Below are positions 21,588 through 36,780 of a stretch of 40,000 nt of DNA, piece after piece; the stretch's first letter is position 1, and every line of letters starts with the position of its first letter. This DNA comes from an uncultured Acidobacteriota bacterium (GTDB taxonomy: Bacteria; Acidobacteriota; Terriglobia; Acidiferrales; UBA7541), in assembly GCA_963751295.1 (NCBI GenBank), contig CAVVUA010000004.1:231000-270999 (forward strand), written 5' to 3'. A model generated the notes under the pieces. That model was not told where the DNA came from. It did not search any database and saw only the letters and a list, made by a program, of their open reading frames with translations. Both the position numbers and the translations under genes were made by a program.

Positions 21588-21842
21588 TGGGTTCTCAGTT
21601 AGTAGATTGAGATTTGTGCGGGAATGCGCATGGTGCTAATCACGGATGAGAATGAAAGACTTCGTCCGAAAAGGGTTGGGCACAAACGGAGAAAACCTCG
21701 TGAACGCAGGTCACTGCGACCGTCTCTCTTCCGTATCTTGTTGAAGGTGTTCGACTAAGATTATCAAGTGCACGGGTTTTGCGCATCCGGGAGCAACAAC
21801 GAGCTCCGCGGGGTAATATAAACGGTTTCGTGAGGTAGGCAA

Positions 21843-23108: not shown

Positions 23109-23241
23109 CGATTAGTTAACTGCAAGAATTGAATTCGGATTGAACGCCGGTCCCCGCAACCGTCGCTCGGCCAGCCATCTCGAACGAGCAGCAGGGTTTG
23201 TTTTTCAATTGCACTTGCTTTGCACAGATCGCTCCGTCTGA

Positions 23242-24021: not shown

Positions 24022-24178
24022 AATCGTCCCAGTATCTGCCCGACAGTTCGCGCAGAGCAGACATGGATTCTAGTCCTGGTTTCCGACTACGCACAAGAAT
24101 AGAAGAGCGACCTTGGGGTGAACTCAGGTTCACCGAACCGTTGCTCACTCTCAAGTGACCCTGGACGACTTCCGGGCG

Positions 24179-25396
24179 TTACGCAGAAACGCAGTTACCG
24201 CAGACCGGACTGGTGGAAAGTCGAATCTGGCCACACACTCGACAAAGCATAGGCCTCGCACGTTTAGTATCGCCCACACCTCCGTTGAGTTTTTCTCTGC
24301 CCTCGCTTTTGTGAGCCTGCGTCAACCGAGTCGCCGGAACTTGAGTCCGCACCTGTCGCATTTTCGAATCCCAAATGCATCGGGCAATCCACTCGGCAAA
24401 GGCGCTAACGGCGGTGCGCCACATTGTCGCTGTTTCCGACAGGATTTCAGCAAACGATCCCATAAGCCGACAATTGCCGTCGCGCTGTTCGAAGAACCAC
24501 TCACGCCTTAATTGTTCTTTAAGCAGTAGATCGAGAACTAGACAGTCAACCTTCGGTCGGATGGGTTCCATGAGGTCGCAAGCAAGACTGTCGCGACTGC
24601 GCAAATCGTTGTGCAGAACTCCAATACCTGGATCTAGCCCGAGTGTGGCAAGTGCCAATCGAGACTCGGACTCCAACACCGCATATAAGTAGTTCAAAAT
24701 TGCGTTGGCTGGATTGACAGCCAGTCGCGGCGAGTTGGTAAGAGGCGATATGCGGCTCCCAAATCGCCGCCAGTGTTCTGGAATTTTCGACGAATCTGAC
24801 TTGCTGAAATTCACAGGAAGCTCTCGCATTGCACTCCAATAGGCTTTAGCGCCTTTGGCTTCCCATCGCCTGATTTCCTCTTTTGATTTTGCAGTGCCGA
24901 CTAGCTTCCGTGCAGCTGCGATGTCAGATGAGCAGGGCGACTCCCTGAAGTAAGTGTTTATGATTCTTTCTTGCGCCAAGAGTTTTTCTGAAATCAATTC
25001 TCGGGCAATCTTTAGAGCAATGCCGGACTCTTGCGCAAGACTTTGGGATCGTCGGAGCCGCGCATCAGATGGGTTCACCGGGCCGGTTGTCGCCAAGACT
25101 TTTCCGTCTCGCTCAAGCAAAACGAAACTTGCGTCTTGGTCTGCGAGCCATCTAAGGGCCGCAAGCGAAACCGATCCGTCCGATCCAATAGCCACGACTC
25201 GCTTAATGCCATGCCTCACTCGGGCAAACCGACCGTAGCGACGCCTTGGCCCAATTCTGTCCTCCAAAATGAGATGGCCGCGGTCAACACACAGACGGGT
25301 GCCATAGCCGTAGAGAGTTACGACGCCACGGTGCGGCGTAATTGGAGTGAAATTGCACTGCGGTCGATCTTGCGGTACGGTCAGCGTAGCTGCCAT
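24179..25396 (-). CDS. cas1: Cas1-family integrase (casposase-like), with a C-terminal CxxC...CxxC zinc-ribbon tail
   Basis: N-terminal beta domain (LILEDRIG..., KRVVAIGSDGSVSLAALRWLADQDASFVLLERDGKV). Catalytic helical domain with WEAKGAKAYW (E), NPANAILNYLYAVLESE and GVLHNDLRSRDSLACDLMEPIRPKVD (H, D/E). The tail is CRVCGQIRLSTSPVCGNC. Confidence 0.9.
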   Translation of the reverse strand: MAATLTVPQDRPQCNFTPITPHRGVVTLYGYGTRLCVDRGHLILEDRIGPRRRYGRFARVRHGIKRVVAIGSDGSVSLAALRWLADQDASFVLLERDGKVLATTGPVNPSDARLRRSQSLAQESGIALKIARELISEKLLAQERIINTYFRESPCSSDIAAARKLVGTAKSKEEIRRWEAKGAKAYWSAMRELPVNFSKSDSSKIPEHWRRFGSRISPLTNSPRLAVNPANAILNYLYAVLESESRLALATLGLDPGIGVLHNDLRSRDSLACDLMEPIRPKVDCLVLDLLLKEQLRREWFFEQRDGNCRLMGSFAEILSETATMWRTAVSAFAEWIARCIWDSKMRQVRTQVPATRLTQAHKSEGREKLNGGVGDTKRARPMLCRVCGQIRLSTSPVCGNCVSA

Positions 25397-25794
25397 CGGA
25401 GTTCAAGCTCCCTTGGTGGTTAGGGCTTGTCGTCTGCGCAAACAGACGGCAGGCCCGTTTATTTCCTTCATTTTACCATCTAATGCCACTTCGGGCACAG
25501 GCGCGCACTTGACAGCCCAGTGGTGCACGGTGCAAATTCTATCTAGCAGCTGGGAACTAGTAGATATGCCTACGGCGGTCCCAAACCGCCCGAAGGGTAC
25601 AGTCCTCACTAGACCCGCGCTTCGCGATTCCAGTAGGAAGTAGCACTGGGCGTATCGGAATCAATCAGTATGCCCTGCATCTTGCATCGTGCAGGGAACG
25701 CAAAAGATTGATTGAGGCGAGGGAGAAAAAGGGACCTGGGCTCAGGCTGAGCAAACGAACTCCTGCAGATGACATCACTCTTGGAGTGTGTCAA

Positions 25795-26598
25795 ATGCAG
25801 GAATCGATTTTGCTTCGCAGTAGAGTTCTCTTCAGCCGTCGAGAGTTCTCAACGCTCACCGGCTTATCACTCAGAACAATCGCAAAGCTGATTGCCTCGC
25901 GAGAATTGAAGTCTATTCTCGTGGGACGGCGGCGGCTGATTCCACGTTCGGAGTTGGCTCGATTCATCAGGCGTGACCATCGCATCGGTGCGCCATCAAC
26001 GGCGGCTCTGCGACTCAGATCTGGCAACCGCAAGATTCGAAAGCCGCTCAAGAAACGCAAGACCCGTGGTGGTAATGGCCGTCGCGTAAATCAGAAACGT
26101 AGAAGCCCCCGCAAACGCGGTCGAGTGAGGCCGCAGAGAATCGGGCCAGCCATCACAGACCCACGCGTCGCCCGGGGTTTGGGGCTAATGCGTAGGGAGG
26201 GAGTGTCAGCTTCCGAGGCGGCTCGCCGAGAGCGAATGAAATTAGAGACTTTTCGGCGACGAGCGGGAAGATATCTTTATCGATCTGGCCCAGGCAAGCC
26301 TTGGAAAGCACGCAGCGAGGACCAACTGGCCTTCTCGATGACCGTCCTAACCAGCCGTGGGCCACTCGACGCTGTTATTCACAATTCGCGCGAACGGAGG
26401 CTGCTCCATCGATATGAAGTTGCCCTCAGAATGTTTCGAGCCGGTGAAGATGGAGTGGAAGCAGCACTCAAAGCGTTCAAAGGTAAGTCTGTTGGCGGAC
26501 ACAAGCTCATTACCGATACAAAACTGCTCATCGAATTAGAGGAAGCTGGGCTGCTCGATTTCGGCAGCCTCTATACTTCGTTCGGAGCACGGTCATGA
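25795..26598 (+). CDS. HTH (excisionase/MerR-like) DNA-binding protein with a highly basic linker; first gene of the polymerase operon
   Basis: FSTLTGLSLRTIAKLIASRELKSILVGRRRLIPRSELARFI is an HTH_17-like motif. It is followed by RKIRKPLKKRKTRGGNGRRVNQKRRSPRKRGR. The stop overlaps the next start (ATGA). Confidence 0.7.
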   Translation: MQESILLRSRVLFSRREFSTLTGLSLRTIAKLIASRELKSILVGRRRLIPRSELARFIRRDHRIGAPSTAALRLRSGNRKIRKPLKKRKTRGGNGRRVNQKRRSPRKRGRVRPQRIGPAITDPRVARGLGLMRREGVSASEAARRERMKLETFRRRAGRYLYRSGPGKPWKARSEDQLAFSMTVLTSRGPLDAVIHNSRERRLLHRYEVALRMFRAGEDGVEAALKAFKGKSVGGHKLITDTKLLIELEEAGLLDFGSLYTSFGARS

Positions 26599-26888
26599 GA
26601 TCGCGCGACGGGTCACAGCCTATCTGCGTGATTTGTGGCAAGGACGCTACGTTGGAATTCAACCATGCCGCGGGTAAGAAACATATACCGTGGTTCAAAA
26701 TTCCCTTTTGCGAGCAGCATCATCATCAGTTTCATCGCCTACTAGAAAGTGTGGGCCTTAACCTTCGCTACACACCCAATAAGTTGAAACGCTTGGTAAT
26801 TGCGGCACTTGCCCTGACTATAGCTCTATGGATGGTGCTTCAAGCCCTCGGGGAAACCGTCTCGCATCTTCCCGAAAAGGACACTTAG
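26595..26888 (+). CDS. small HNH-like nuclease-motif protein with a C-terminal TM helix
   Basis: CVICGKDATLEFNHAAGKKH...PFCEQHHHQFH resembles a CxxC...HNH...CxxH beta-beta-alpha-Me finger. Translationally coupled to the upstream gene. Confidence 0.5.
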   Translation: MRSRDGSQPICVICGKDATLEFNHAAGKKHIPWFKIPFCEQHHHQFHRLLESVGLNLRYTPNKLKRLVIAALALTIALWMVLQALGETVSHLPEKDT

Positions 26889-26902
26889 CCACCAAAAGAG
26901 AT

Positions 26903-29141
26903 ATGTCTGAGCAGGAATCTCCCGAAATCTTCGTGCGGGCGCATACAATCGTCCGCACGAAGAAGAACGCGAGGGATCGCAGATGGTCGCCAAAATGGCC
27001 CAAGTACTGCCTCATCTTCGATACCGAAACCACTCTTGATCCCACTCAGAAACTTAATTTTGGTGCCTACCGCCGATGCCAACGCGTGGGTGATAAATAT
27101 ATATGTGTGGCCGAAGGAATTTTCTATAAGGATGATCTTCCTGAACGCAAATTAAAACTCGTACAGCGATACAAGAGCAACCCTAAGACTCTTCCATCGA
27201 TTGAAGTGTTTCCCGCGCAAATGGCGCTCGGTCTGATGAGTCGCTCTGCATTTGTCAGTCGAATCTTTTGGAAATCCGTGCGGAAAGGGGAGCTGATTGT
27301 TGGTTTTAATTTGCCGTTCGACCTATCGCGATTGGCGATCAAAGCGACTGCCGGAAAAAAGGGTGACTGGTCCTTAGCACTCTCCCAGCTTTGGGAGAAT
27401 CCCAAGACAGGGCGAATCGTACCAAACCCGAAGCGACCCCGAATTATTGTTGACGCTCAAAACAGCAAGATGGCTTTTATCAAACTAGGCAGCATTTTGC
27501 ACAAGAAGGAGTGGCCAAAAGAAGGTCGCTTCCTTGATCTGCGAACTCTCGGCTGGGCGTTAAGGAATGTGTCCTTTAGCTTGAAAGTTGCCTGTAAGAA
27601 GTTCCACGTCAAAGGGAAACCAGATCACAAGCCCTCAGGAGAGATCAATTCCGAAGAGATGGAGTACTGTCGAGGTGATGTGGCGGCCACGCACCGCTTG
27701 CTAAATGCGATGATGGCGGAATTTAATCGGAATCCTCTTGATTTGCATCCCGACAAAGCCTACTCACCTGCTTCGATTGCCAAAGACTATTTGACGGAAA
27801 TGGGAATCAAGCAGCCCAAGGATCATTTCGAAGTCCCTAACAAGACTTTGGGAATTGCAATGCAAAGTTATTATGGCGGTCGGGCAGAGTGCCGGATCAG
27901 AAAAACTCCCGTTCCAGTGATCCACACTGACTTCACCAGCCAATATCCAACTGTCAACGCACTCTTGGGAAACTGGAATGTGCTTACTTCCAGCTCTGTC
28001 CGGTTTGTAAATTGCAAAGCATCTGCCAAAAAGCTGCTTTCGAAAGTATCTCTGAAAAACATGTTTGATCCGGGTTTCTGGAAACAGCTCTCGTTCTTTG
28101 CGCTTGTAAAGCCCAAGAACGACATTCTTCCAGTGAGAACGATTTACAAAGGAAGAACGCAGAATATCGGACTTAATTATCTGACTTCTGACAAACCCAT
28201 TTGGTATGCGGGCCCCGATCTCATAGCTTCCAAAATCCTCACCAAGAGAGCTCCCAAAATCCTAAAAGCGCTCCGCATGGTGCCACACGGTCGACAATTA
28301 AATTTGCAATCTCGAAATCTACAGGGAATGGTGGAAATAAATCCTGCAAAGGATGATTTCTATCGGAAGGTAATCGAACAGAGAATCTCCCATAAAGCAC
28401 AAAACAAGCCTTTGGCTGACTTTCTCAAAGTACTGGCAAACTCGGGAAGTTATGGCTTGTTCGTGGAGGTAAATACCGAAACGAAGAAAAAAGAAACGAA
28501 AGTGCCTTATTTTTCCGGCGAGAAAAAAGGAAGAATCCCCTCTACCTACGTAGAAAAGCCAGGCGCTTGGTATTTTCCTCCGGTGGCATCTCTCATTACA
28601 TCTGGTGGCAGGTTATTACTCGCGATGCTGGAAAAGAGTGTCGATGAAAGTAGGGGAAGCTACTTGTTCTGCGATACTGATTCGCTTTGCATCGTGGGGA
28701 CGGAAACGGGGAGTTTTGTTCCTTGCGTAGGGGGGAAGCATTTTTCCAAAGGAAAACCAGGCTTCAGAGCACTGTCACTGCGGGAAGTAAGATCAATCGC
28801 AAGTAAATTCAGAAAACTAAACCCGTACAATCCTTCCCTCGTAACTGAAATCCTCAAGATCGAAGACATCAACTTCTTGGATGACGATCCCAAGAAACGA
28901 TTCCGCCAGCTTTTTGGCTACGCGATTTCCGCGAAAAGATATGCGCTTTACACAAGATCGGGAAGTGACATTCAAATTGAAAAAGCCAGCGGGCACGGTC
29001 TCGGATATCTCTGTGCGCCAAAGGAAAGAGAAGATGATGAGAAAACTGATGAGGAAACAGATGAGGATGAAGCGCCGCAGTGGGTAACGGAAGCTTGGGA
29101 CTTTCTTTTGAGGAAAGAACTGGGATTGCACTCCAAGGAAC
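26903..29141 (+). pseudogene. family-B DNA polymerase, N-terminal ~746 codons (exonuclease and polymerase core), truncated by an IS3 insertion
   Basis: ExoI CLIFDTETT, ExoII GFNLPFDLSRL, ExoIII YCRGDVAATH, SYYGGR, motif A HTDFTSQYPTV, motif B KVLANSGSYGLF, motif C LFCDTDSLCI, KxY AISAKRYALY. The track ORF 26828..29272 continues into IS sequence. Confidence 0.9.
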
Positions 29142-29201
29142 TGTCTTGCCTCAGCTGGAACCGGAGAAGGCGTTCTTCCGTTAAGATAACGGAGAGGGCG
29201 C

Positions 29202-29510
29202 ATGAGAAAAGGGCGAAAGCACTACACCGGAGAAGAGAAGGTTGCCATCCTGAGACGGCACTTGTTGGATAAGGTGCCGGTTTCTGATCTCTGTGAGGAG
29301 CATGGACTGCAGCCGACCGTGTTCTACCGCTGGCAGAAAGAGTTCTTCGAGAATGGCGCGGCCGCCTTCCAGGGCAAGGGCCGGCAGGACCACCAAGGTG
29401 AACAACAACGGATCGAGTTCCTGGAAAAGAAGATCCACACCAAAGACGAGGTGCTGGCTGAATTGATGGCCGAGCACATCGCCTTAAAAAAAAGTCTTGG
29501 GGAGCTCTGA
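29202..29510 (+). CDS. IS3-family transposase OrfA (HTH)
   Basis: MRKGRKHYTGEEKVAILRRHLLDKVPVSDLCEEHGLQPTVFYRWQKEF is typical of IS3 OrfA. Confidence 0.9.
   Translation: MRKGRKHYTGEEKVAILRRHLLDKVPVSDLCEEHGLQPTVFYRWQKEFFENGAAAFQGKGRQDHQGEQQRIEFLEKKIHTKDEVLAELMAEHIALKKSLGEL
29486..29494 (+). other. programmed -1 ribosomal frameshift site (A AAA AAA AG) joining OrfA to OrfB
   Basis: A run of eight A followed by G. A shift from the orfA frame to -1 reads ...KKSWGALTKVWVPPDV, which merges with the OrfB N-terminus. Confidence 0.75.
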
Positions 29511-29515
29511 CCAAA

Positions 29516-30547
29516 GTGTGGGTGCCGCCCGATGTGCGGGACCAGGTGGTGGATTTCGTCCGGTGCTGGTCGGAAAAAACAGAGATCGGTACCGGACGAT
29601 TCATCCACTGGCTGGGCGTACGACCCAGCAAGTTCTACGACTGGCGGGAGCGCTATGGGCACGTCAATGAGCACAACGGTTGGGTTCCTCGCGATTTCTG
29701 GCTACAACCGTGGGAGAAGCAAGCCATCATCGGCTTCCACCGGGAACATCCCTTGGAAGGCTATCGACGACTGACGTTCATGATGCTGGACGCCGATGTT
29801 GTGGCCGTCAGCCCCTCCAGCGTTTGGCGAGTGCTCCAACAAGCCGGATTGCTCTCCCGATGGAAGGGTAAGCCTTCGCGCAAGGGGAGCGGTTTCGAGC
29901 AACCACCGCACGCGCACCAGCATTGGCACATCGATGTTTCCTACATCAACGTGAGCGGCACGTTCTATTACCTGTGCAGCATTCTGGATGGCTATAGCCG
30001 TTCGATCGTTCATTGGGATCTGCGGGAATCGATGACCGAAGCGGAGATCGAAGTCATTTTGCAACGAGCGCGGGAGAAATATCCGGAAGCGAAACCGCGG
30101 ATCATCTCCGACAACGGACCACAGTTTATTGCCAGGGATTTCAAGGAATTCATTCGCATCGCGGGGATGACCCACGTGCGAACCTCGCCCGGCTATCCGC
30201 AATCGAACGGGAAACTTGAACGCTGGCACAAATCGCTAAAAGCGGAGTGCATCAGGCCAGGTACACCGTTGACGAGAGAAGACGCGGTGCGTTTGATTCA
30301 AGCCTACGTGGATCACTACAACACCGTGCGCCTGCACAGCGCTATCGGCTATGTGACGCCGCACGATATGCTCGCCGGGAGACAGGCTGAGATCCACGCG
30401 GCACGCGATCGCAAGCTGGAGGAAGCGCGTCACCAACGGCAGTTCCGGCGGGAGGCCAGATCGCTGCTTGCACATTCTTCGAACACGACTACAATGACCT
30501 CGCCAGGTGAAACAGAAGCGGGCTCTGCAGGGATGCAACCATGCTGA
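29516..30547 (+). CDS. IS3-family transposase OrfB (DDE/rve integrase core)
   Basis: HWHIDVSYI (D), IISDNGPQFIA (D) and PQSNGKLERWHKSLK (E). Frame is -1 relative to orfA. Confidence 0.9.
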   Translation: MWVPPDVRDQVVDFVRCWSEKTEIGTGRFIHWLGVRPSKFYDWRERYGHVNEHNGWVPRDFWLQPWEKQAIIGFHREHPLEGYRRLTFMMLDADVVAVSPSSVWRVLQQAGLLSRWKGKPSRKGSGFEQPPHAHQHWHIDVSYINVSGTFYYLCSILDGYSRSIVHWDLRESMTEAEIEVILQRAREKYPEAKPRIISDNGPQFIARDFKEFIRIAGMTHVRTSPGYPQSNGKLERWHKSLKAECIRPGTPLTREDAVRLIQAYVDHYNTVRLHSAIGYVTPHDMLAGRQAEIHAARDRKLEEARHQRQFRREARSLLAHSSNTTTMTSPGETEAGSAGMQPC

Positions 30548-30735
30548 GGGATAACCTGGTAGGACTCATCGAGCCGATGCGAATCAGCGCGGGAGTTGAT
30601 CCTCTCGCGCTGAGCATCCAGAAACAGGCATCGGACGATAGATCCTCATGCCTTGAAAATCCCCGTCCCGAATGGGCGGAATCTTCACTAACGGAAAACG
30701 TCACCTCTCCATTTCAGGCTGAGCCAGCACAGAAC

Positions 30736-31427
30736 CATCATGGTTGGACTTGCCCGCAATGATGCGAATGGTGGTAACAACCCCCAACGTATTGAAGCAT
30801 CAAAGGCCAGAGTGGCTGGGACCGTTCAATTTCTTCTTGTTTCCTTTGCTCTCTGAAGTTGGCGGATATCCTTCGGGTTTCGACAAATCCAATTTTATGT
30901 TCATAACCCCCAACGAATCGAAGCGAAGCAAGTGGAAATCGCTCGGCGGGATCAATTTATATGACGGGCGAAGCTATCAGATCGCGATGCGCCCCACGGC
31001 AAAGCAGGACAAGGTAATTCCAGAATCTTTTCGAATCATCCTGAACCAATACTTGGGCAAGGCTGAGGTGAAATCGCTAGCCCCGGACGGAACGCCATGC
31101 ACCGGAACTACTCAAGGGTTGCTCCTTAGAGCAAGAATTGTTGCGGGCAAATTGATTCCCGTCGGTAAAGAGACGGATCGAAAGTGGGAGCACGGTGGAG
31201 ATCCGAGTATGCTGGATTCCCAGGTCCATGTATATGAGAAGCAGCGAAAAATGGTTATCGCTAACGCTTTGGAGAGGAACACATGGTTGGCCATCGGCGT
31301 TAGGCGCTTGATGAGAGAAACAAAGCTAAGCCAAGCACCAGTCTCCAACGCTATCAGGGGCAAGCCGGTCCGTCCTGGCACTCTGGCGATCATCAGAGAG
31401 ACGGCAGCCAGGATACTGGCCGAGTAA
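30736..31427 (+). pseudogene. family-B DNA polymerase, C-terminal ~230 codons separated from the N-terminal part by the IS3 element
   Basis: Deleting 29142-30735 joins ...GAA C|CA TCA TGG TTG GAC... This gives ...HSKEPSWLDLPAMMRMVV..., in frame with track ORF 30744..31427. The reconstituted ORF is ~976 codons from the ATG at 26903. Confidence 0.85.
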
Positions 31428-31433
31428 TGGTAC

Positions 31434-31580
31434 GGGACTTGTCCGGTAAGGCGACTTCTGCTTATCCGGTTGTTTCAGCAAAACCGGATATCTTGGGCGT
31501 CGTCGACGCCAGCACCACAACGGCTGGGTGGCGACCTGAAGCAACCGGATAAGCAAGAGGCGACTAATCGGGAGTTATGG
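31434..31580 (+). repeat. palindromic cargo motif, copy A (GGGACTTGTCCGGTAAGGCGACT...AATCGGGAGTTATGG), interrupted in its loop by a 101-bp insert
   Basis: Starts 7 nt after the PolB stop. With 31457-31557 removed, it aligns at about 33 of 40 positions with copy B. Confidence 0.7.
31457..31557. mobile_element. MITE-like 101-bp insert with 16-bp terminal inverted repeats and an 8-bp duplication AGGCGACT
   Basis: TCTGCTTATCCGGTTG ... CAACCGGATAAGCAAG match at 14 of 16 positions as inverted repeats. AGGCGACT sits at 31449-31456 and 31558-31565. The internal palindrome is GGCGTCGTCGACGCC. Confidence 0.35.
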
Positions 31581-31863
31581 CCTCCCATGATTGCCGAGGA
31601 CCCATTGGTCACACCCCACCACAACAATTGAGCAGCATTTTTCAATTGCTTTGTAAACTCCGCATGTGGTGTCCAGAAAAGAGCGGACTATGGTGCGACA
31701 AACCCTCAGTCGGGTCAGTATTGTTTTCAGTCTGTTGTCTGCGTTTTCGCTAGCGAGGATGGTTGCATCGCGGTAACCAATTCCGAGATCGAGGAAATCT
31801 GGCCCATGGTGGCGGTTGGTACCGCTGTGGAAATTCGTCCGTAGGTAGCTCGAACTGACCAAC

Positions 31864-31900
31864 GGAACTTGTCCGATAACGCGACAACCAGGAGTTAGGT
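31864..31900 (+). repeat. palindromic cargo motif, copy B (GGAACTTGTCCGATAACGCGACAACCAGGAGTTAGGT)
   Basis: Aligned by eye to copy A. Unoccupied. Confidence 0.65.
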
Positions 31901-31952
31901 ATGTGCCACGATTAAGATCATCTATCCTGTTGATCGATTAGAATGAAAGTCT

Positions 31953-32243
31953 ATGGCAACTCGCGTCATAGTCGGAGTCGTCGCGCTGGCCTGTTTTTCG
32001 ATCTGTGGCATGCTCTCGACCTTTACAAGGTACGAGATGATGGACAAAGTAAATGAAAAACTTCCAAAAGAGGAACAGTTTGGGGCGCTCTGGTGGTATG
32101 CATCCAAGTACCAACGACTCAATCGTGAATACAAAAAGCTGTATCCAGACGGGGACCTTCTCTTAAAGATTCGCGTGCTTATTGCGCTGATGTTTGCTTG
32201 TTTGCTCGTTTGCGTTTTGGGATTCGGAATCTTCGCAAAGTGA
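31953..32243 (+). CDS. small two-TM membrane protein (cargo)
   Basis: 96 aa. The hydrophobic helices are VIVGVVALACFSICGMLSTF and VLIALMFACLLVCVLGFGIF. No clear RBS. Confidence 0.45.
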   Translation: MATRVIVGVVALACFSICGMLSTFTRYEMMDKVNEKLPKEEQFGALWWYASKYQRLNREYKKLYPDGDLLLKIRVLIALMFACLLVCVLGFGIFAK

Positions 32244-32259
32244 GCGTGAAATCCATTTG

Positions 32260-33101
32260 GTCGAGTAGCCGGGCGCCATCGCTGGCGCCCAGCCCTCTAA
32301 GAACCGGACTTGAAGGTTTCCCATTCATCCGGCTCGAGCACTCAAAAACGCCCCCCTGAACAACGAGGACGCGGCCTGATTCAAAAACGAAGCAGACCTA
32401 CTCGATACTGACTTGCTGCCGATTCGCACGACGGTGGAAAATCCACCAATCGTGTGTGAAGCCGCACCAACGGGTTGCCCCGTCGTCATTTGCTTTGCTT
32501 CATGCATCGGTTCCTCAAGAGTTCTCGAGCTGAGCACCAACAGGAAGTCAGCTCCGTTTCCGGCGAGGTGATCTTGTCCCAACCTGGCGACGCAACCTCT
32601 ATCTGCCCGATTACAGGGCAGCCTTCGCTTGCTCCCATTTCCGTTACCCGCATCGCCATCAGTGCCATCTTGCGATGGACTTTCCCCTTGCGAGGAGCGC
32701 TACGGGCTTACCCTGTTCCGCTGAAATGACGCGATCGGTTAGATCTGCTCCCTACGCCGGCAGTGTTGATTACCCATGACAGAGGAACCGGAAGCCTCTG
32801 TACTCACTGCAAGAAGAGCCACGCAGCATTTTAGGCTCTCTTCGTCTGACGACGCTTACGAGCATTTGTATATTCTGATCGTACGATCAAGCCTAGGCCC
32901 GTCTCCGCCTAATGCTGGCAGGTACACCGTGGCCTCACGGTTTCGGTGCCGCTCTTGCGAGCGTGGATACATTTTTCCAAGGGCTCCAGAACAGTTCGTT
33001 ACCTCCCCGCTCTGCCTTGTAGGCTACGTGCGATGGGACGCACGGTCTGATCGAGTTCCTCCTCTCCAGACAATCATCTTCAGCAGCTTTACAGGTCGCA
33101 C
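32260..33101 (-). mobile_element. ORF-less group II intron (842 nt)
   Basis: On the minus strand the 5' end is GUGCGAC. Domain V is at 32301-32335. The D6-like helix has a bulged A 7 nt from a ...CUACUCGAC 3' end. The D5-to-3'-end segment (41 nt) aligns with that of the neighbouring intron and shares AGCGAUGG. No credible ORF inside. Confidence 0.62.
32301..32335 (-). ncRNA. group II intron domain V of the ORF-less intron
   Basis: GAGCCGGAU-GAAUGG-GAAA-CCUUC-AA-GUCCGGUUC. It has the AGC triad, a GNRA tetraloop, a 2-nt bulge and a 9-bp basal helix. Confidence 0.65.
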
Positions 33102-33130
33102 TCCGGTAAGACGACTAATCAGGACTTGAC
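33102..33130 (+). repeat. palindromic cargo motif, copy C (TCCGGTAAGACGACTAATCAGGACTTGAC), abutted by the 5' end of the ORF-less intron
   Basis: It lies 15-20 nt downstream of the stop of the 252-aa minus-strand gene. On the minus strand it reads ...CCTGATTAGTCGTCTTACCGGA|GUGCGAC. Confidence 0.65.
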
Positions 33131-33145
33131 CGCGAGGACAACAAG

Positions 33146-33904
33146 TCACAAGTCGGGCAGGGCTGTTATGAAGCCCTTTGGGCGCTCGCTAACAGGATTT
33201 GGGGCATCAACGCTGACATGAGGATTCCATTCGTAAGTTATTTCTGCCCAGCCCCCGCTGGTGGTCAAGTGGTACGGCAAATGGTCTGATGTGCCAACGC
33301 AAACAGTGTCGTGCATCACTCGCCCGGTCTCCTCAATTGTCCAAGTATAACTCCACTCAAGACAGGGATGTCCCGCGTAGGTTTTTAGCCCTTCTGGATG
33401 CATGTTTACGCCATGATAGTTGGACCAGAAACTCGTCTCTATGGAATCGAAGCTGTACCCAATCGTACGCGGATTGCTCATGTGCAAGCGCAGCTCAAAA
33501 AAACCGTCCAACGGCGGCATATCTCTCGGAATCAATTTTATCCATAGTGATGAGCTTTTGTGACCGAACATTGCATCGCCACGAAAATATCGGTCATCTC
33601 GGACCCGGATGTATTCAAGATCACCCGCGATGCGAATGCTCTTTGAGTCCCCTGCTTCTGCTGTGCGGTCAACATGCTGCCATCCATGCTCGCGGTCGGG
33701 CGGGACTGCTTCGATCGTCATCCACTCTTTCGGGAGTTTTGGATCTGTCGATTGCAAATGCATACGCCAGCTTTTCGTTCTGGAAATCGCCCAATCCGTG
33801 CGAAGTAGCCAGTAATCCGCTCGTTTGTCTGACCAGTTTTTTGCAGCCCAAATTGAACCCGCCGCAATCAGCGCGGCAATCCCATACAATAGAATCTTTT
33901 TCAT
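33146..33904 (-). CDS. secreted hypothetical protein (cargo)
   Basis: 252-aa ORF with the signal peptide MKKILLYGIAALIAAGSIWAA. No family recognised. Confidence 0.6.
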   Translation of the reverse strand: MKKILLYGIAALIAAGSIWAAKNWSDKRADYWLLRTDWAISRTKSWRMHLQSTDPKLPKEWMTIEAVPPDREHGWQHVDRTAEAGDSKSIRIAGDLEYIRVRDDRYFRGDAMFGHKSSSLWIKLIPRDMPPLDGFFELRLHMSNPRTIGYSFDSIETSFWSNYHGVNMHPEGLKTYAGHPCLEWSYTWTIEETGRVMHDTVCVGTSDHLPYHLTTSGGWAEITYEWNPHVSVDAPNPVSERPKGFITALPDL

Positions 33905-34039
33905 GAGCCTGAGAGAAGATTAGAGCACTTCCTGTCTAGATTCCAATCACGCTTGGAGCCGCTCAGCTATCTAGTAATGACCCGTGTACGGGCCTAAGTG
34001 TCGCGGTAGGGACGACCATCGCTGATCGCCCCCCGCACA

Positions 34040-34071
34040 GAACCGTACGGGCGCTTCTACGCATACGGCTC
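34040..34071 (-). ncRNA. group II intron domain V (32 nt)
   Basis: GAGCCGUAU-GCGU-AGAA-GCGC-CC-GUACGGUUC. The AGC triad and 2-nt bulge are present. Confidence 0.85.
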
Positions 34072-35634
34072 CCACCTTGGATGAGTGGCGAGGAAACGAG
34101 CTATAGGATAAGGATGCAAAACGCGTGGGGCGGGAATCCACCGCTTGAAGATCCGGGTGGTCCGGATCCACGACGTTGGTCGTTGACTGCGACGGCGTAG
34201 AAGGAGCCGCCACAATCGCCGCAAGCGTTGTCCGAAGATACTCAACCGGACGATGTTTCCCGGGACCGCATGGTAGCGGTAGTAGCCGTTCACAACCTTT
34301 CGTAGCCATGCACCGACGTCGGCAATCGGCTCGTGCATGCGGAGGCGCAGTTCTGCTTTGAGTGCGTGCAGCTTCGCCACCATGCGTTTCTTCGCCGTTT
34401 TCCGCCAGACGATGAACGACCCGTTGCTCCGGCGCTTCCCGCAGTGATGCGTAAAGCCCAGGAACGTGAAGGTCTCCGGCTTCCCTACTCCACGCTTCTC
34501 CCGATCTTGGGCAGCGAACCGCCCAAACTCGATCAGTCGTGTTTTCTCCGGATGTAGTTCCAATCCGAATTTAGCCAATCGTTCCCGAAATGCTTCCAGG
34601 AATCGCTCGGCCTCCACTCGGTTTTCGAAACCCACCACCAGATCATCGGCGTAGCGGACGACGATCACATCACCCGTGGCCACTTTCTGGCGCCAAGCCT
34701 CGATCCACAGGTCGAATACGTAATGCAGGTACACATTGGCTAGCAATGGAGAAACCACTGCTCCTTGCGGTGTTCCTACCTTACTCTCCGACCATTGGCC
34801 GTCTTCCGATATCCCCGCCTTCAACCATTTCTGGATCAGGCGCAGGATCCGGCGATCGGCTACGCGGTGCTCAACAAACTTCATCGTCCATTCGTGACTC
34901 ATATTGTCAAAGAAGCCTCGAATGTCGGCGTCAAGCACCCAGTTCACGCGCTTCCTTTGGAGGCCCACCGTCAGCGCGTCCAGCGCTTGGTGCGGGCTGC
35001 GTCCGGGACGGAACCCATACGAGAATCCTTGGAAGTCCACCTCATAAATCTGGTTGAGAATGGTCACCACGGCTTGCTGTACGATTTTGTCTTCCAGCGC
35101 CGCAATACCCAACGGGCGTTTCCGCCCGTCAGCCTTCGGTATGTAGACTCTTCGTGAGGGCTGTGCCCGATACGCTCCTCGGTGTACCCGGTTGTGTAGA
35201 TCGGTAAGCCGACCTTCTAACCCGGTTTCATACTCCTGCCATGTCACGCCATCTACTCCCGGCGCGGCTTGCCGCTTTAAGGCGTAGTAGCTGTCCCGGA
35301 GTAAATCCACGCTCACATGGTGTAGCAAAGCTGTGAACCGTTCTTGCCTCCTTTTCTTTGCTGCTTCTCGCACACCGCCCAATCCCTGGGACACTCGTTC
35401 TCCGCTCTGTGTCGGGTGAGTGTTGGGTTGAACGATGTTCTCCTTGGCCCGCACCCTTTTCTCCCCAGGCTCCGCCGAAGATCGCTCCTCTTTGTTCGTC
35501 TGGTTCATCGATAGTATGGTGCGGTCCGACTCCTCTGGAGCGTGCGCGTCCGCCTTCTGGCTTTGCGCCTTCGCGGACCGGCCTCGTTCCCTTTCGGGCC
35601 GAGGCGCTCCAGAGGTCTCCCGGTTCTCGTGCAT
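34057..35634 (-). CDS. group II intron-encoded reverse transcriptase/maturase
   Basis: RT blocks (APGVDGVTW, RRVYIPKADGRKRPLGI, VLDADIRGFFDNMSH, GTPQGAVVSPLLANVYL, VVRYADDLVVGF) and a maturase/X region. No C-terminal HNH endonuclease. The first ~90 aa are low-complexity, so the start may be the internal ATG at 35508. Confidence 0.92.
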   Translation of the reverse strand: MHENRETSGAPRPERERGRSAKAQSQKADAHAPEESDRTILSMNQTNKEERSSAEPGEKRVRAKENIVQPNTHPTQSGERVSQGLGGVREAAKKRRQERFTALLHHVSVDLLRDSYYALKRQAAPGVDGVTWQEYETGLEGRLTDLHNRVHRGAYRAQPSRRVYIPKADGRKRPLGIAALEDKIVQQAVVTILNQIYEVDFQGFSYGFRPGRSPHQALDALTVGLQRKRVNWVLDADIRGFFDNMSHEWTMKFVEHRVADRRILRLIQKWLKAGISEDGQWSESKVGTPQGAVVSPLLANVYLHYVFDLWIEAWRQKVATGDVIVVRYADDLVVGFENRVEAERFLEAFRERLAKFGLELHPEKTRLIEFGRFAAQDREKRGVGKPETFTFLGFTHHCGKRRSNGSFIVWRKTAKKRMVAKLHALKAELRLRMHEPIADVGAWLRKVVNGYYRYHAVPGNIVRLSIFGQRLRRLWRLLLRRRSQRPTSWIRTTRIFKRWIPAPRVLHPYPIARFLATHPRWEPYA

Positions 35635-35916
35635 GTTGTTTCTCAGCGTGCGCGGGTTCTTAGACTACGCAGGACCGACTGCTCGCTCGCGTTTATCGCG
35701 AAAACAGCCGTATTGCCTTCCTCCAATCAGGAGAGAGTCGGCGTCCTGGTTTGCGTTTTTCGAAGTTCAATAGCCCGGCCCACCGATACCCCTGTCTACG
35801 CTTCGGGCGACACCTCGCGATGTCACCTGCAAGACTGAGGGCCAAGATGGAGTCGCTGTCTCCTTTCTTGTGGGACTCTTTCATTCCCTACAACACGCCG
35901 GTTTAACCCGGCGCAC

Positions 35917-35945
35917 CCCGATTAACGCTAGCGCCGTTACCGTCC
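35917..35945 (-). repeat. palindromic cargo motif, copy E (minus-strand GGACGGTAACGGCGCTAGCGTTAATCGGG), split from its ACTTAGG continuation (33993-33999) by the 1.9-kb intron
   Basis: The 5' exon ends ...GTTAATCGGG|GUGCG. The rejoined exons give TAATCGGG|ACTTAGG, compared with copy A TAATCGGG AGTTATGG. Confidence 0.6.
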
Positions 35946-35966
35946 AAATGAAGTTTTACTTTACAT

Positions 35967-35990
35967 CTCCGGTAAGCCAACTAATCGAGC
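35967..35990 (+). repeat. palindromic cargo motif, copy D (CTCCGGTAAGCCAACTAATCGAGC)
   Basis: Aligned by eye. It forms an inverted pair with copy E, 21 bp away. Confidence 0.5.
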
Positions 35991-36126
35991 ACTGGCAAGT
36001 GATGTTTTGAGGTCACACCGTGGAAGCGTTGTCCGGACACGGCTAGAATGAGAATCAGGGACACCGTGACTCGCATCGCTCGCTTGTCTGCGCAATCGGG
36101 GACAAGGGACGCACGCGTTGATTCTA

Positions 36127-36393
36127 ATGAAACACTCTCGAACGAAGATGTTCATATTGGCAGTGTTCTTTATCGCGGCTACTGCCATCGGTTGCTGGGC
36201 GGAATTTCGCCCGCTGACAAGCGACGTCCTAGGCATGTTCGCGCTGCCCGGAGTCTTCCTCTCCTTGTGCTTTAGCATCGGCCCCCATGGATCAACAAGG
36301 TTGTTCCTCTGGTCGGGGCCAATCTGTAACGGCGTCGCCTATACGGGGCCTCTTGCTTTCGTGTTCTGGTTGCGCGCTAAACTTTCACACTAA
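36127..36393 (+). CDS. small membrane protein (cargo)
   Basis: MKHSRTKMFILAVFFIAATAIGCW... with 2-3 hydrophobic helices. The TTG at 36118 is an alternative start. Confidence 0.4.
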   Translation: MKHSRTKMFILAVFFIAATAIGCWAEFRPLTSDVLGMFALPGVFLSLCFSIGPHGSTRLFLWSGPICNGVAYTGPLAFVFWLRAKLSH

Positions 36394-36682
36394 CTGCGGG
36401 GACCGCTTTGCAGCGCGGCGTGGTTGGCAGTAACGATCCAAAGTCCTGGGAAACGCCGTTACCGGAAAAGTGGAAATGCAAACTGGATTCGTACTTTTCA
36501 GTTTTTACGAAGATCATTCCTCGTCGCAATGTACTTTCCAAGTGTGTTTGTGACGCACGCGAATCGTATTTGCAAGTGGCCTAGTTTCAGTGGTTTCTGC
36601 CAGCGGAACGCGTCAAAAGCGTTCGCACGCCGCTTCTCATAAGCACACCCGTGAAAATCACGGTGCGCGCTGGTAAAACAAT

Positions 36683-36766
36683 CGCATTTCCATTTCAACG
36701 GCGCTGCATTGCGCGAGCACGCGTTTCCACGGGTGTATCACTTTTCCCCCGCCTGTAACTTAACCC
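36683..36766 (-). repeat. right terminal inverted repeat (perfect core 36731-36766)
   Basis: Its reverse complement matches 21505-21587: 36/36 in the core, then two further conserved blocks separated by a divergent ~14-nt spacer. Confidence 0.92.
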
Positions 36767-36780
36767 GTCAACGCGGTTGG
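36767..36780. repeat. right copy of the 14-bp target-site duplication GTCAACGCGGTTGG
   Basis: Matches 21491-21504 at 14 of 14 positions in direct orientation. It immediately follows the TIR end. Confidence 0.85.

Follow-up and report, generated by a model that had tools for sequence, protein, structure and literature searches.

Two group II introns of different classes at copies of a short interspersed repeat in a soil Acidobacteriota genome

The ORF-less TeI3 introns of the thermophilic cyanobacterium Thermosynechococcus elongatus are chloroplast-like (IIB1) group II introns driven by the related IEPs of TeI4 introns (Mohr, Ghanem & Lambowitz 2010, PMC2882425). They derive from a single ancestral deletion of the domain IV (D4) ORF, whose start is still recognisable; ORF-less copies occupy several sites with good EBS/IBS pairing, and EBS-diverged lineages are found in parallel with ORF-containing relatives. 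Bacterial class E (IIE) is represented by S.me.I4 of Sinorhizobium meliloti pRmeGR4b, Cl.be.I2 and P.l.I1 (Toro 2002; Nagy et al. 2013, PMC3753933), and a disrupted intron of pRmeGR4b has been designated class E (PMC5894124). Published hallmarks of IIE introns, in D5 and DId3, include a D5 loop of 5 nt and the position of the α′ motif. Class C (IIC) introns insert downstream of the stem-loops that terminators and attC sites form (Robart 2007; Leon & Roy 2009; reviewed in PMC4424553) and lack EBS2 (PMC3753933, PMC3522654). In P. putida, two of nine group II introns lie at REPs (Tobes & Pareja 2006, PMC1525189).

The window analysed here, a 40-kb stretch of a soil Acidobacteriota genome, contains two introns on the minus strand with ~900 bases between them, both housed in a casposon, a mobile element (Table 1). 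Both had been recognised as group II introns in a first-pass annotation, which proposed covariance-model searches, folding, a search for EBS/IBS pairings and classification of the IEP. Rfam covariance matches, comparative folds and the comparison of empty with occupied sites confirmed both introns and their coordinates. At the Rfam gathering thresholds, intron 1 matches D1D4-6 (35655-35879, minus strand, 158 bits) and, over D5/D6, Intron_gpII (34000-34073, minus strand, 48.7 bits); intron 2 matches D1D4-7 (32897-33045, minus strand, 87.8 bits) and Intron_gpII (32260-32337, minus strand, 51.2 bits). The ends of intron 1 agree with 78 family copies and with empty sites. The 5′ ends (GUGCGCC in intron 1 and GUGCGAC in intron 2), the domain V lengths, the bulged A of both D6 helices and the post-D5 tails of 40 and 41 nt were all as first described. 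A comparative alignment (A1) gave a six-domain consensus fold for intron 2 with 46 of 253 pairs compensated, and the D2/D3 fold of intron 1 has 54 pairs, 21 of which show compensatory changes (RNAalifold, eight family members). The ORF between the introns has no match in Pfam or NCBIfam; together with its flanks, it is identical in four other assemblies.

Table 1. Features of the two introns and their insertion sites (^, insertion point).
Feature	Coordinates	Strand	Evidence
Intron 1, ORF-containing group II intron, assigned to bacterial class E (IIE), 1917 nt	34000..35916	-	Rfam D1D4-6 and Intron_gpII
Intron 1 domain II, about 35528-35617, and domain III, about 35446-35527	35436..35634	-	RNAalifold
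Intron 1 IEP ORF (called length 525 aa) with RT and maturase domains; YADD motif 34642-34653	34057..35634	-	RVT_1, TIGR04416
Intron 1 domain V, 32 nt, AGC triad	34040-34071	-	Rfam RF00029 alignment
Intron 1 domain VI, bulged A at 34007	34000-34039	-	Rfam RF00029 alignment
Intron 1 EBS1 loop CCUGAUU	35725..35731	-	Pairs with IBS1 AAUCGGG (35917-35923)
Intron 1 EBS2 AACGC	35753..35757	-	Pairs with IBS2 GCGTT (35924-35928)
Type 1 repeat motif, intron 1 homing site	35917..35944	-	Family 5′ exons; empty site in L046
Unoccupied type 2-like site (..CTCGATTAGTTGGCTTACCGGA^GATGTAAAG)	35968..35993	-	Second copy of 20-nt motif
ORF of 252 aa between the introns, same strand, function unassigned	33146..33904	-	
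Intron 2, ORF-less group II intron, assigned as chloroplast-like (IIB1), 842 nt	32260..33101	-	Rfam D1D4-7 and Intron_gpII
Intron 2 IEP remnant in domain IV stub, ATG and 10 codons (MTTGQPVGAAS)	32457..32489	-	Match to chloroplast-like IEP N-terminus
Intron 2 domain V, 35 nt, AGC triad, GAAA loop	32301-32335	-	Rfam RF00029 alignment; A1 columns 785-857
Intron 2 domain VI, bulged A at 32266	32260-32300	-	Rfam RF00029 alignment; A1 columns 785-857
Intron 2 EBS1 UCCGGU, hairpin 32780-32800	32787..32792	-	Pairs with IBS1 ACCGGA (33102-33107)
Intron 2 EBS2 AGACGA	32842..32847	-	Pairs with IBS2 TCGTCT (33109-33114)
Degenerate type 2 repeat motif, intron 2 homing site (..CCTGATTAGTCGTCTTACCGGA^)	33102..33127	-	Type 2 matrix, shared bond

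The ORF of intron 1, noted at the outset for its YADD motif, encodes a group II RT/maturase recognised by RVT_1 (Pfam) and TIGR04416 (NCBIfam) at 357 bits; neither database gives an HNH endonuclease match. The conserved core begins near the GTG at 35394 (V81). Residues 81–525 align over their full length with proteobacterial IEPs at 61–64% identity, and the first 80 codons of the called ORF overlap D2/D3. The protein is 57% identical to the class E IEP of pRmeGR4b and 33% identical to the class D IEP of RmInt1. The disrupted class E intron of pRmeGR4b also matches D1D4-6 (145 bits), the model matched by intron 1, whereas RmInt1, a class D intron on the same plasmid, matches a different model, D1D4-2. 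Calibrated on pRmeGR4b as the one literature-anchored reference intron, intron 1 is assigned to class E, and not to class C as initially supposed. Like the described class E introns (PMC3753933), it combines an IEP lacking an endonuclease domain with a compact ribozyme of IIB-like form, which takes up about 580 nt beyond the core ORF, matches the same Rfam model and has clear, covarying EBS1 and EBS2; its IEP is 57–64% identical to proteobacterial members. The intron 1 family differs from known class E introns in its hundreds of copies (at least 576 relatives in Acidobacteriota genomes, often several per genome), in homing to an interspersed short repeat and not to a single gene or IS element, in its division into at least four target types, among which both strands of the repeat are represented, and in the GAGCG start of many copies. 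The called ORF that is open through D2/D3 is a further difference of intron 1 itself.

Intron 2 is ORF-less, as first described: tblastn with two different IEPs returned just an 11-codon N-terminal remnant. The remnant fits MTTAQAVGA(V/A)S, conserved across 120 chloroplast-like IEPs, and sits in the best-conserved part of D4. Full-length ORF-less relatives (L121, 95% identical; L090 and L119, 76–77%) lie at different loci with matching EBS, and the D4 stub is identical in kind among four ORF-less copies, indicating one common D4 deletion. ORF-containing relatives include L103, L134 and L212–L221, the nearest being 80–82% identical to intron 2, and the IEP of L103 aligns over its full length with TeI4h (PDB 6ME0; 606 bits). 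By these comparisons, intron 2 is a non-autonomous, ORF-less chloroplast-like (IIB1) intron with a TeI4h-type protein start left in D4. Its domains D1–D3 are nearest to ORF-containing introns that target the type 2 repeat described below, and D4–D6 are nearest to other ORF-less introns; because of this mosaic, the history of intron 2 may include recombination. Apart from the driving by related IEPs, which is presumed for intron 2, the traits listed above for TeI3 and TeI4 (PMC2882425) recur in intron 2 and its lineage. Unlike TeI3, intron 2 resides in Acidobacteriota from soil metagenomes, is a mosaic of ORF-containing and ORF-less relatives, and targets a high-copy interspersed repeat that is also used by an unrelated class E family; it is known from sequence alone, with a driver presumed to lie in its own genome.

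The first-pass annotation had treated the two introns as related and the ORF-less one as a non-autonomous derivative or relative of its neighbour. The non-autonomy is upheld, but the kinship is not. Similarity detected by blastn is limited to a 35-nt stretch of D6 (E = 0.69), and the introns have no common sequence beyond generic D5/D6 features; the shared CAGCGAUGG, once taken as a sign of kinship, corresponds to a GNRA tetraloop (GCGA) and the base pairs that close it. The D1 regions match different Rfam models, and the IEP of the relatives of intron 2 is 31% identical to that of intron 1.

Judged by covariation, both introns find their sites through two RNA–DNA pairings, EBS1 and EBS2, rather than through a hairpin. 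In both families, EBS1 (5–7 nt) and EBS2 covary with the 5′ exon over dozens of independent insertions. In the intron 1 family, EBS1/exon combinations include UCCGA/TCGGA, CCUGA/TCAGG, GACGA/ACGTC, GGUGA/CCACC, CCCAU/ATGGG, AAUGA/TCATT and AGUGA/GCACT, and EBS2/exon combinations include GCCGA/TCGGC, GCCCG/CGGGC, GCCGG/CCGGC, AACGC/GCGTT, AACGG/CCGTT, AGTCG/CGAC and AGTGC/GCAC. The EBS1 hairpin of intron 2 is supported in A1 (columns 305–327), and in L090 the EBS1 loop CAUAUCUC complements that intron's own exon GAGATATG. EBS2 of the intron 2 lineage varies with the exon as AGCCGA/TCGGC (L121 and L213–216), GCCCGA/CGGGC (L212) and CCAGAA/CTCTGG (L090). Intron 2 fits its own degenerate site exactly at both EBS1 (6/6) and EBS2 (6/6), and its EBS2 is one base, the compensating one, apart from that of L121.

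The 5′ exons end in CTTACCGG-A^ and GTTAATCGG-G^, as reported earlier, and the proposal that a repeated sequence directly 5′ of each intron is its homing site is borne out by the many unoccupied repeat copies that run uninterrupted through the junction point. The shared motif is genuine as a sequence, but not as a hairpin: folded as single-stranded DNA, the 5′ exon of either intron is no more stable than its shuffles (−3.1 and −2.6 kcal/mol, z about 0), and canonical motif copies elsewhere give z values of +0.3 to −1.9 with inconsistent structures. These results bear on the possibility that both introns are class C-like, endonuclease-less elements that insert 3′ of a DNA hairpin, with the ORF-less copy mobilised by the neighbouring IEP. 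The resemblance to class C introns lies in the IEP of intron 1, which lacks an endonuclease domain, in the intergenic position and many copies per genome, and in the partly palindromic, high-copy motif next to the insertions. The D6 stems of the two introns look alike, the IEP of intron 1 is the only one in the window, and class E and intron-2-lineage copies share an insertion bond in the repeat. A strong hairpin (−13 kcal/mol, z = −2.6) does lie immediately 5′ of intron 1 on L001, a related contig, but its sequence belongs to the terminus of an IS91-like insertion and not to the repeat. The covarying EBS2, the EBS1 of 5–7 nt and the different ribozyme and IEP classes led us to reject class C membership for both introns, the motif being read as sequence and not as a stable stem-loop. 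With the chloroplast-like D4a and ORF start retained in intron 2, and the same target used by autonomous chloroplast-like relatives, the class C-like reading is largely refuted and has only a very low probability.

Both introns target a short repeat, interspersed throughout these genomes, that comes in two variants. The sequence GATTAGTNGNCTTACCGGAG occurs twice in the window (0.02 expected), and a related 26-nt motif has 145 matches in 1.45 Mb of acidobacterial loci versus 16 in shuffled sequence. Intron 1 occupies a type 1 copy; the 5′ exons of its family read ..CGGTAACGGCGTT(T)AATCAGG^, and an empty type 1 site in L046 reads gcgttaatcagg^acctag. The type 1 site in the window carries a 6-nt CTAGCG footprint where L001 has a 2.48-kb integrase and IS91-like element. 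Type 2 sites (108 empty and 37 occupied) read ..CCGGA^AGTWATCC. The site of intron 2 is a weak match to the type 2 matrix (9.6 bits versus 29.9 bits for the L121 site), and its insertion bond is shared with 37 class E insertions and six ORF-containing chloroplast-like insertions. Matches to this matrix are not enriched within the window (15 at 7 bits or more versus 10.5 expected). An unoccupied type 2-like site lies 51 nt upstream of intron 1, and its counterpart in L046 holds a 5′-truncated copy of the intron 2 lineage. The class E and chloroplast-like families have converged on one repeat and one bond, a class E sublineage using the same type 2 sites as the chloroplast-like introns, likely because the junction ends a conserved 13–14-nt block readable by EBS2 and EBS1. 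As with REPs (PMC1525189), a short, abundant, weakly palindromic repeat is the landing site for several mobile elements, here class E introns, chloroplast-like introns and the integrase and IS91-like element; intron targeting is systematic here and occasional at REPs.

That class E copies at type 2 sites and members of the intron 2 lineage insert at an identical point would also be accounted for if an abundant class E IEP with relaxed RNA specificity mobilised the ORF-less chloroplast-like intron. Class E IEPs are very numerous, the sole IEP near intron 2 is the class E protein of intron 1, and 'driver' IEPs of relaxed specificity are documented inside one family (PMC2882425). However, ORF-containing chloroplast-like introns with their own IEP occupy the same bond, so the shared target requires no shared protein, and EBS1 and EBS2 suffice to explain target choice. 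The ORF-less lineage conserves a D4a of chloroplast-like form with no similarity to intron 1, the IEPs share just 31% identity, and no precedent for cross-class mobilisation was found in the literature consulted. We regard such driving across classes as very improbable. Mobilisation by the neighbouring IEP, as first proposed, is likewise unlikely, given the chloroplast-like D4a and ORF start of intron 2. Most likely, intron 2 is mobilised by a chloroplast-like protein encoded elsewhere, because its closest ORF-containing relatives (80–82%) occupy the same repeat and the same bond.

In the mechanism that we propose, the RNA of intron 1, once spliced, would remain bound to its own endonuclease-less RT/maturase, and would reverse-splice into the type 1 repeat, where EBS2 pairs with GCGTT and EBS1 with AATCGGG. 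Endonuclease-less introns use a nascent strand at a replication fork to prime cDNA synthesis, and the same is expected for intron 1. The intron 2 lineage lost its ORF once, while retaining the ribozyme and the D4a protein-binding region, and EBS2 and EBS1 pair with TCGTCT and ACCGGA of the type 2 site. For splicing in vivo and for mobility, intron 2 most likely relies on a chloroplast-like IEP that acts in trans and is encoded by an ORF-containing relative at another locus of the genome. This presumed driver intron would be similar to L212–L216 and L221, which share the target of intron 2.

Alternatively, intron 2 may be a stranded relic that retrohomed while a chloroplast-like IEP was available, perhaps in a different casposon host, and that is now driverless and immobile, being self-spliced, poorly spliced or unspliced. 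A search of the 40-kb window, and of 10 kb on each side on L001, found no chloroplast-like IEP gene, and such IEPs are scarce among the acidobacterial loci sampled: of 80, each about 21 kb long, one (L134) carried such a gene. The site of intron 2 is a degenerate copy, the casposon could have moved the intron between hosts, and mobility is generally lost in ORF-less bacterial introns according to a review (PMC4424553). The exact fit of both EBS elements to that degenerate site, in contrast, implies recent specific homing or maintained pairing, and the catalytic elements (GUGCG, AGC triad and bulged A) are all intact. Other metagenomes contain copies 90–95% identical to intron 2 at different sites, among them a 5′-truncated one typical of retromobility, and autonomous relatives come from metagenome samples with neighbouring ENA accession numbers. 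We consider a relic unlikely, and both introns may still be active.

Taken together, we estimate a probability of about 75% that the region comprises two group II intron retroelements that are independent and differ in class, each having retrohomed by RNA guidance into one copy of an interspersed short repeat, with intron 2 probably driven in trans by a chloroplast-like IEP, as the ORF-less introns of T. elongatus are by related IEPs (PMC2882425). The system belongs to a known kind, its nearest counterpart being these Thermosynechococcus introns, and the convergence of two intron classes on one target is a modest novelty.

A scan of the whole window with Rfam returned exactly four matches at the gathering thresholds, all on the minus strand and divided between the elements designated intron 1 and intron 2. 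Read directly from the sequence, intron 1 begins with GUGCGCC and intron 2 with GUGCGAC; their domains V (D5) are 32 and 35 nt long, and the tails that follow D5 measure 40 and 41 nt, the lengths given in the first-pass annotation. Both elements contain the 5' GUGYG sequence, the catalytic triad and 2-nt bulge of domain V, a bulged A in domain VI (D6) located 7–8 nt from the 3' end, and a six-domain fold, and consensus folds with compensatory pairs were obtained for both. For the intron 2 lineage, RNAalifold on four full-length ORF-less copies produced a six-domain structure of 253 pairs, with compensatory changes in 46. The insertions are precise, as the exons rejoin into uninterrupted sites found elsewhere. 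The initial identification of both elements as group II introns therefore holds, with a covariance-model match and a foldable D1–D4 for intron 2, and splicing of both is predicted.

Features of the window discussed in the text; a caret marks the insertion bond.
Feature	Position	Strand	Remarks
Casposon	21505-36766		complete; both group II introns inside
Casposon TIRs	21496-21587 and 36683-36775		about 90 nt
Casposon target duplication			GTCAACGCGGTTGG at each end, 14 bp, perfect direct repeat
Cas1	24179-25396	minus	casposon
Other casposon genes			family B DNA polymerase (PolB), HTH_17 protein, DpnII/MboI-like protein
PolB halves	26828-29272 and 30744-31427
IS3 element	29142-30731		splits PolB
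IS3-family transposase	29516-30547
Inverted repeat pair	31443-31571		intergenic after PolB; 36 nt, 81% complementary, 57 nt apart; with CCGGTAAG and GACTAATCGG
Unoccupied type 2-like site	31872-31897	minus	intergenic after PolB; ..CTCCTGGTTGTCGCGTTATCGGA^CAAG, 8.8 bits
Intron 2	32260-33101	minus	842 nt; insertion site TCGTCTTACCGGA^CAAATGG
Intron 2 D5/D6	32260-32337	minus	Rfam Intron_gpII, 51.2 bits
Intron 2 ORF start in D4 stub	32457-32489		intron positions 613-645
Intron 2 EBS1, UCCGGU	32787-32792	minus	pairs with ACCGGA
Intron 2 EBS2, AGACGA	32842-32847	minus	pairs with TCGTCT
Intron 2 D1	32897-33045	minus	Rfam group-II-D1D4-7, 87.8 bits
252-aa ORF	33146-33904	minus	between the introns, on their strand; hydrophobic N-terminus, no family match
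Intron 1	34000-35916	minus
Intron 1 D5/D6	34000-34073	minus	Rfam Intron_gpII, 48.7 bits
Intron 1 IEP ORF	34057-35634		525 aa
IEP ORF over domains II and III	35394-35634		first ~80 codons
Intron 1 EBS1, CCUGAUU	35725-35731	minus	pairs with AATCGGG, within 35917-35928
Intron 1 EBS2, AACGC	35753-35757	minus	pairs with GCGTT, within 35917-35928
Intron 1 D1	35655-35879	minus	Rfam group-II-D1D4-6, 158 bits
Footprint of 2.48-kb element, CTAGCG	35927-35934		6 nt
Second copy of 20-nt motif	35968-35993		unoccupied

The two introns had been described as related, a view that sequence comparison does not bear out: their common sequence is limited to a 35-nt stretch of D6 (blastn E = 0.69), and CAGCGAUGG, which is present in both, is a GNRA tetraloop with its closing pairs. 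A tblastn search with the intron-encoded protein (IEP) of intron 1 found nothing in intron 2, which is without a protein, and the reading that intron 2 arose from intron 1 by deletion was rejected for lack of similarity by tblastn and blastn. The introns belong to two unrelated classes, neither of which is class C.

The ORF of intron 1 has a YADD motif and encodes a group II RT/maturase, with matches to RVT_1 and to TIGR04416 (357 bits). These were its only domain matches, with no endonuclease domain and no HNH match. IEPs without an endonuclease are common to classes C, D, E and F, and this feature is not discriminating. Classification from solved structures failed, as a search of PDB sequences with the IEP scored IIB, IIC and IIA proteins at 153, 143–146 and 131 bits, respectively. 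A literature search also found no table that links the Rfam D1D4 models to intron classes. Therefore, the assignment was calibrated on the S. meliloti plasmid pRmeGR4b, whose introns have been classified in the literature as class D (RmInt1) and, for a disrupted intron at 64.6–66.5 kb, class E (PMC5894124). RmInt1 matches D1D4-2, and its IEP is 33% identical to that of intron 1. The class E intron matches D1D4-6 (145 bits), the same model as intron 1, and the intron 1 IEP is 57% identical to one of its two frame-shifted IEP pieces and 51% to the other. Based on the shared model and IEP identity, intron 1 is assigned to class E (IIE), a grouping of its IEP by pairwise identities to one reference intron. 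Over the full length, IEPs on Rhizobium, Pseudomonas, Burkholderia, Ralstonia and Klebsiella plasmids are 61–64% identical to residues 81–525 of the intron 1 IEP. Class E introns lack the endonuclease domain and have a compact, IIB-like ribozyme, with a 5-nt D5 loop, an alpha' element at the DId3 terminal loop and an extra DId3 bulge loop as hallmarks (PMC3753933). The apical part of the intron 1 D5 (GCG-UAGAAG-CGC) is compatible with a loop of either 4 or 6 nt. The first ~80 codons of the IEP ORF overlap domains II and III, which contain 21 compensated pairs; this frame is open in all relatives (524–526 aa), and insertions and deletions in the D2 loop come in multiples of three. Either this N-terminal extension is translated under dual constraint, or the true start is the GTG at 35394.

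Relatives of the intron 1 IEP are abundant, with at least 8000 database proteins at E ≤ 1e-30, the top 120 of which are 78–97% identical over the full length. Species-representative genomes contain at least 576 relatives, and almost all of the best 80 of these 576 loci lie in Acidobacteriota MAGs (Ca. Acidoferrales, Acidobacteriaceae, Terriglobales and Bryobacterales), often with several copies per genome. Most copies of the family (L126–L205) begin with GAGCG, not with the GUGCG of the window copy. At one locus (L159, 7802–11635), two class E copies are arranged head to tail, the second beginning directly after the 3' end of the first.

Exon recognition was analyzed by aligning D1 of 78 class E family copies against their 5' exons. 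The EBS1 hairpin loop tracks the last 5–7 exon nucleotides, with the EBS1/IBS1 combinations UCCGA/TCGGA, UCCGG/CCGGA, CCUGA/TCAGG, GACGA/ACGTC, GGUGA/CCACC, CCCAU/ATGGG, AAUGA/TCATT and AGUGA/GCACT. A second loop, EBS2, tracks exon positions −13 to −9 (EBS2/IBS2 of GCCGA/TCGGC, GCCCG/CGGGC, GCCGG/CCGGC, AACGC/GCGTT, AACGG/CCGTT, AGTCG/CGAC and AGTGC/GCAC). This covariation indicates that the intron 1 family uses classical IIB-type homing, with RNA–DNA pairing of about 11–13 nt.

A class C-like character had been proposed for both introns. Class C (IIC) introns are characterized by a short EBS1 of 3–4 nt together with EBS3, and they integrate immediately downstream of a terminator or attC-type stem-loop. 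They are also without EBS2 (PMC3753933, PMC3522654). The class C reading fails this defining test because EBS2 is present, and it is contradicted by the covarying EBS2/IBS2 and the 5–7-bp EBS1/IBS1 pairings found in both families. Hairpin-directed insertion, which was part of the same proposal, is not supported either: as single-stranded DNA, the 5' exons of the two introns have folding energies of −3.1 and −2.6 kcal/mol (z ~ 0 versus shuffles), and canonical copies of the motif gave z values from +0.3 to −1.9, without a common structure or T-run. The target is fairly described as a weakly palindromic repeat, not as a stable hairpin.

A metagenome scan with the D5 pattern of intron 2 returned 120 loci; the same pattern found nothing in viral contigs. 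ORF-less copies at other sites include L121, which is 95% identical to intron 2 over all 842 nt; L046, which is 94% identical and 5'-truncated; L011, L016, L027 and L036 (90–99% identical); and L090 and L119, which are 76–77% identical end to end. ORF-containing relatives include L103 (73% identical) and L134, from an Acidobacteriota MAG (72%). The L103 IEP, which has an HNH domain, matches the TeI4h maturase/RT (6ME0) over its full length at 606 bits and is 31% identical to the intron 1 IEP. TeI4h is a chloroplast-like/IIB1 protein. More generally, the IEPs of these relatives contain RVT_N, RVT_1 and GIIM domains, with or without HNH. The 5' exon of intron 2 is recognized in the IIB manner, by EBS1 and EBS2, and the pairings of its relatives vary with the exon (EBS2/IBS2 of AGCCGA/TCGGC in L121 and L213–216 and GCCCGA/CGGGC in L212; CCAGAA/CTCTGG and CAUAUCUC/GAGATATG in L090). 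These sequence comparisons identify intron 2 as a chloroplast-like (CL/IIB1) intron. The predicted EBS1 loops of L103, L119 and L134 mismatch their own 5' exons, and these copies may be at non-cognate sites. L121 and L199 were considered as orthologous loci and rejected, as only 62 nt of 5' flank are in common, corresponding to the repeat.

The four full-length ORF-less copies (intron 2, L121, L090 and L119) share one D4 stub that retains the start of the ORF. In intron 2, it encodes MTTGQPVGAAS, the counterpart of MTTAQAVGA(V/A)S, the conserved N-terminus in 120 chloroplast-like IEPs. Conservation of this N-terminus across the whole subfamily prevents the 11-codon remnant from pinpointing the partner IEP. 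Thus, as in TeI3, a single ORF deletion is found in copies at several sites with matching EBS/IBS pairs. The standard review describes ORF-less bacterial introns as rare and, for the most part, no longer mobile (PMC4424553). Intron 2 joins this uncommon group as a member that would depend on a protein supplied in trans, and the Thermosynechococcus introns TeI3/TeI4 are its closest known parallel.

Six ORF-containing chloroplast-like introns of 2406–2408 nt (L212–L216 and L221) were found by searching for autonomous relatives from the L134 IEP and fetching the contigs. Over D1–D3, they are nearer to intron 2 (80–82% identical) than any other relative, including ORF-less L090 and L119 (74–77%). 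The D4 stub, D5 and D6 of intron 2 group with L090 and L119, such that intron 2 is a mosaic; an ORF-less backbone may have acquired a type 2-specific D1, and with it the present specificity, by recombination. In the chloroplast-like family (L090, L103, L119, L134 and L212–L221, compared with window positions 33101 and 32261), the nucleotide at intron position 1 covaries with the penultimate one: G1 is combined with a 3' end ..GAC in intron 2 and L121, and all relatives with C1 or U1 end in ..GGC or ..GGU. The pattern resembles natural covariation at the known contact between these two positions; the first nucleotide of most family members is not G. Two compound arrangements were also observed: in L119 (1434–2609), a full ORF-less copy is followed after 2 nt by a 5'-truncated copy, and in L071 (~1490–1540), a chloroplast-like intron lies inside domain VI of another intron (twintron).

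Four variants of the target, a short interspersed repeat, were distinguished among insertions of the class E family: type 1 (..CGGTAACGGCGTT(T)AATCAGG^ACTTGAG), which includes the site of intron 1; type 2 (..tcCCGGATGGTCGGCAAaCCGGA^AGTWATCC); a third type (..GGGCGTTATACGTC^AAGTTGAC); and a fourth, which is type 2 read on the opposite strand. A 26-nt type 2 matrix gave 145 hits over 1.45 Mb of acidobacterial loci, compared with 16 in shuffled sequence. Class E introns occupy 37 of these sites (..CCGGA^intron^AGTWATCC), and the other 108 are empty (..CCGGA AGTWATCC) and continuous across the junction, which validates the intron boundaries. A loose type 1 regular expression (99 hits, 9 occupied) was too permissive for counting. 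The window itself is not enriched for the type 2 matrix, which represents Acidobacteriaceae sites (15 hits of at least 7 bits, 10.5 expected), and its motif copies are a divergent variant of the repeat. In the window, the 20-nt motif has a second copy, which is empty, and the homologous site in L046 holds a copy of the intron 2 lineage; conversely, the type 1 site 50 nt downstream of that site is empty in L046 (..gcgttaatcagg^acctag), and its window counterpart holds intron 1. This reciprocal occupancy supports the boundaries of both introns and the homing site assigned to each, and the suggestion that the repeat copies 5' of the introns serve as homing sites is upheld, with empty and occupied counterparts for each. 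Intron 1 is a new class E member whose homing is unusual in degree only, through a repeat of high copy number and at least four types of target.

Intron 2 and L121 are inserted at the same bond as the class E copies in type 2 repeats; the L121 site is a type 2 repeat of 29.9 bits, much clearer than the intron 2 site in the window. This coincidence could suggest the neighboring class E protein as the driver of intron 2; in that reading, the genome would lack a chloroplast-like IEP, and the abundant class E RT would splice and mobilize intron 2 across classes. If true, the shared bond would reflect a common protein–RNP pathway on single-stranded DNA, not convergence. However, L212–L216 and L221, which encode their own IEPs, occupy this very bond of type 2 repeats (..GATGGTCGGCAACTCGGA^UUGCGACC.. 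and ..GACGGGCAAACCGGA^CUGCGACC.., 3' exon AGTAATCC), so the chloroplast-like lineage has adopted this target itself and a shared protein is unneeded; driving across classes is now unlikely. Class E and chloroplast-like introns converge on one bond of one repeat, which is modestly new, and likely do so because this bond is the end of a conserved block readable by EBS2 and EBS1. The best reading is that a chloroplast-like IEP supplied in trans would mobilize intron 2, given the target of the autonomous relatives, the conserved chloroplast-like D4a and the precedent of Thermosynechococcus ORF-less introns with driver IEPs (PMC2882425). We infer such a partner rather than name one, since its gene is absent from the 40-kb window and from 10 kb on either side in the related contig L001, and a chloroplast-like IEP occurs in one of 80 acidobacterial loci. 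The IEPs P0230 and P0232 (567 aa) of the type 2-targeting introns L212–L216 are without a recorded Pfam HNH match, and P0217 (574 aa), from close relatives at another target (L217–L220), has one; the repeat-targeting lineage may have lost its endonuclease recently.

Both introns lie within a complete casposon in an Acidobacteriota (Ca. Acidoferrales-like) genome. L001 (ENA ERZ25039522 contig_29054, 358 kb) encodes an identical intron 1 IEP and an identical 252-aa protein, and is 99.98–100% identical to the window, with two differences. First, the IS3 element that splits PolB in the window, with a 4-bp overlap at the junction, is absent from L001, where PolB is intact (976 aa). Second, L001 carries a 2.48-kb element (7214–9700) exactly in the palindrome (type 1 motif) 5' of intron 1, of which the window retains a footprint. 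This element encodes a tyrosine recombinase (integrase) and an IS91-type Y2 transposase, a gene pair also found on S. meliloti pRmeGR4b. Directly 5' of intron 1, L001 has a hairpin of −13 kcal/mol (z = −2.6), which is formed with the end of the inserted element and is not a property of the repeat. Similar integrase and IS91-like elements abut chloroplast-like introns in L212 (215–2278) and L221 (5177–7241), and the end of this element, ..GCCAGCGGCTWCGT, lies directly 5' of the type 2 half-site in L212 and in the class E sites L148 and L179. Mobile elements of three kinds therefore seem to land in this repeat. The gene for the 252-aa protein, with an identical product, is also present on three short contigs from short reads (Logan). 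Such contigs start within intron 1, 24–26 nt from its 3' end, and stop 6–253 nt into intron 2, a pattern expected of introns that occur as repeats in these genomes.

The window thus presents a rare case of retroelements nested in a self-synthesizing transposon. The intron 2 lineage has persisted through ~24% sequence divergence and has changed targets, and it occurs in many soil and freshwater metagenomes, which carries the 'driver and passenger' picture of Thermosynechococcus into another phylum. For the class E family, the target rules read from covariation could aid the annotation of acidobacterial genomes, whose short-read assemblies are broken by these introns. With its shared landing site, this natural system could be used to ask which properties make a genomic site safe to land in and how far the RNA specificity of an IEP can relax.
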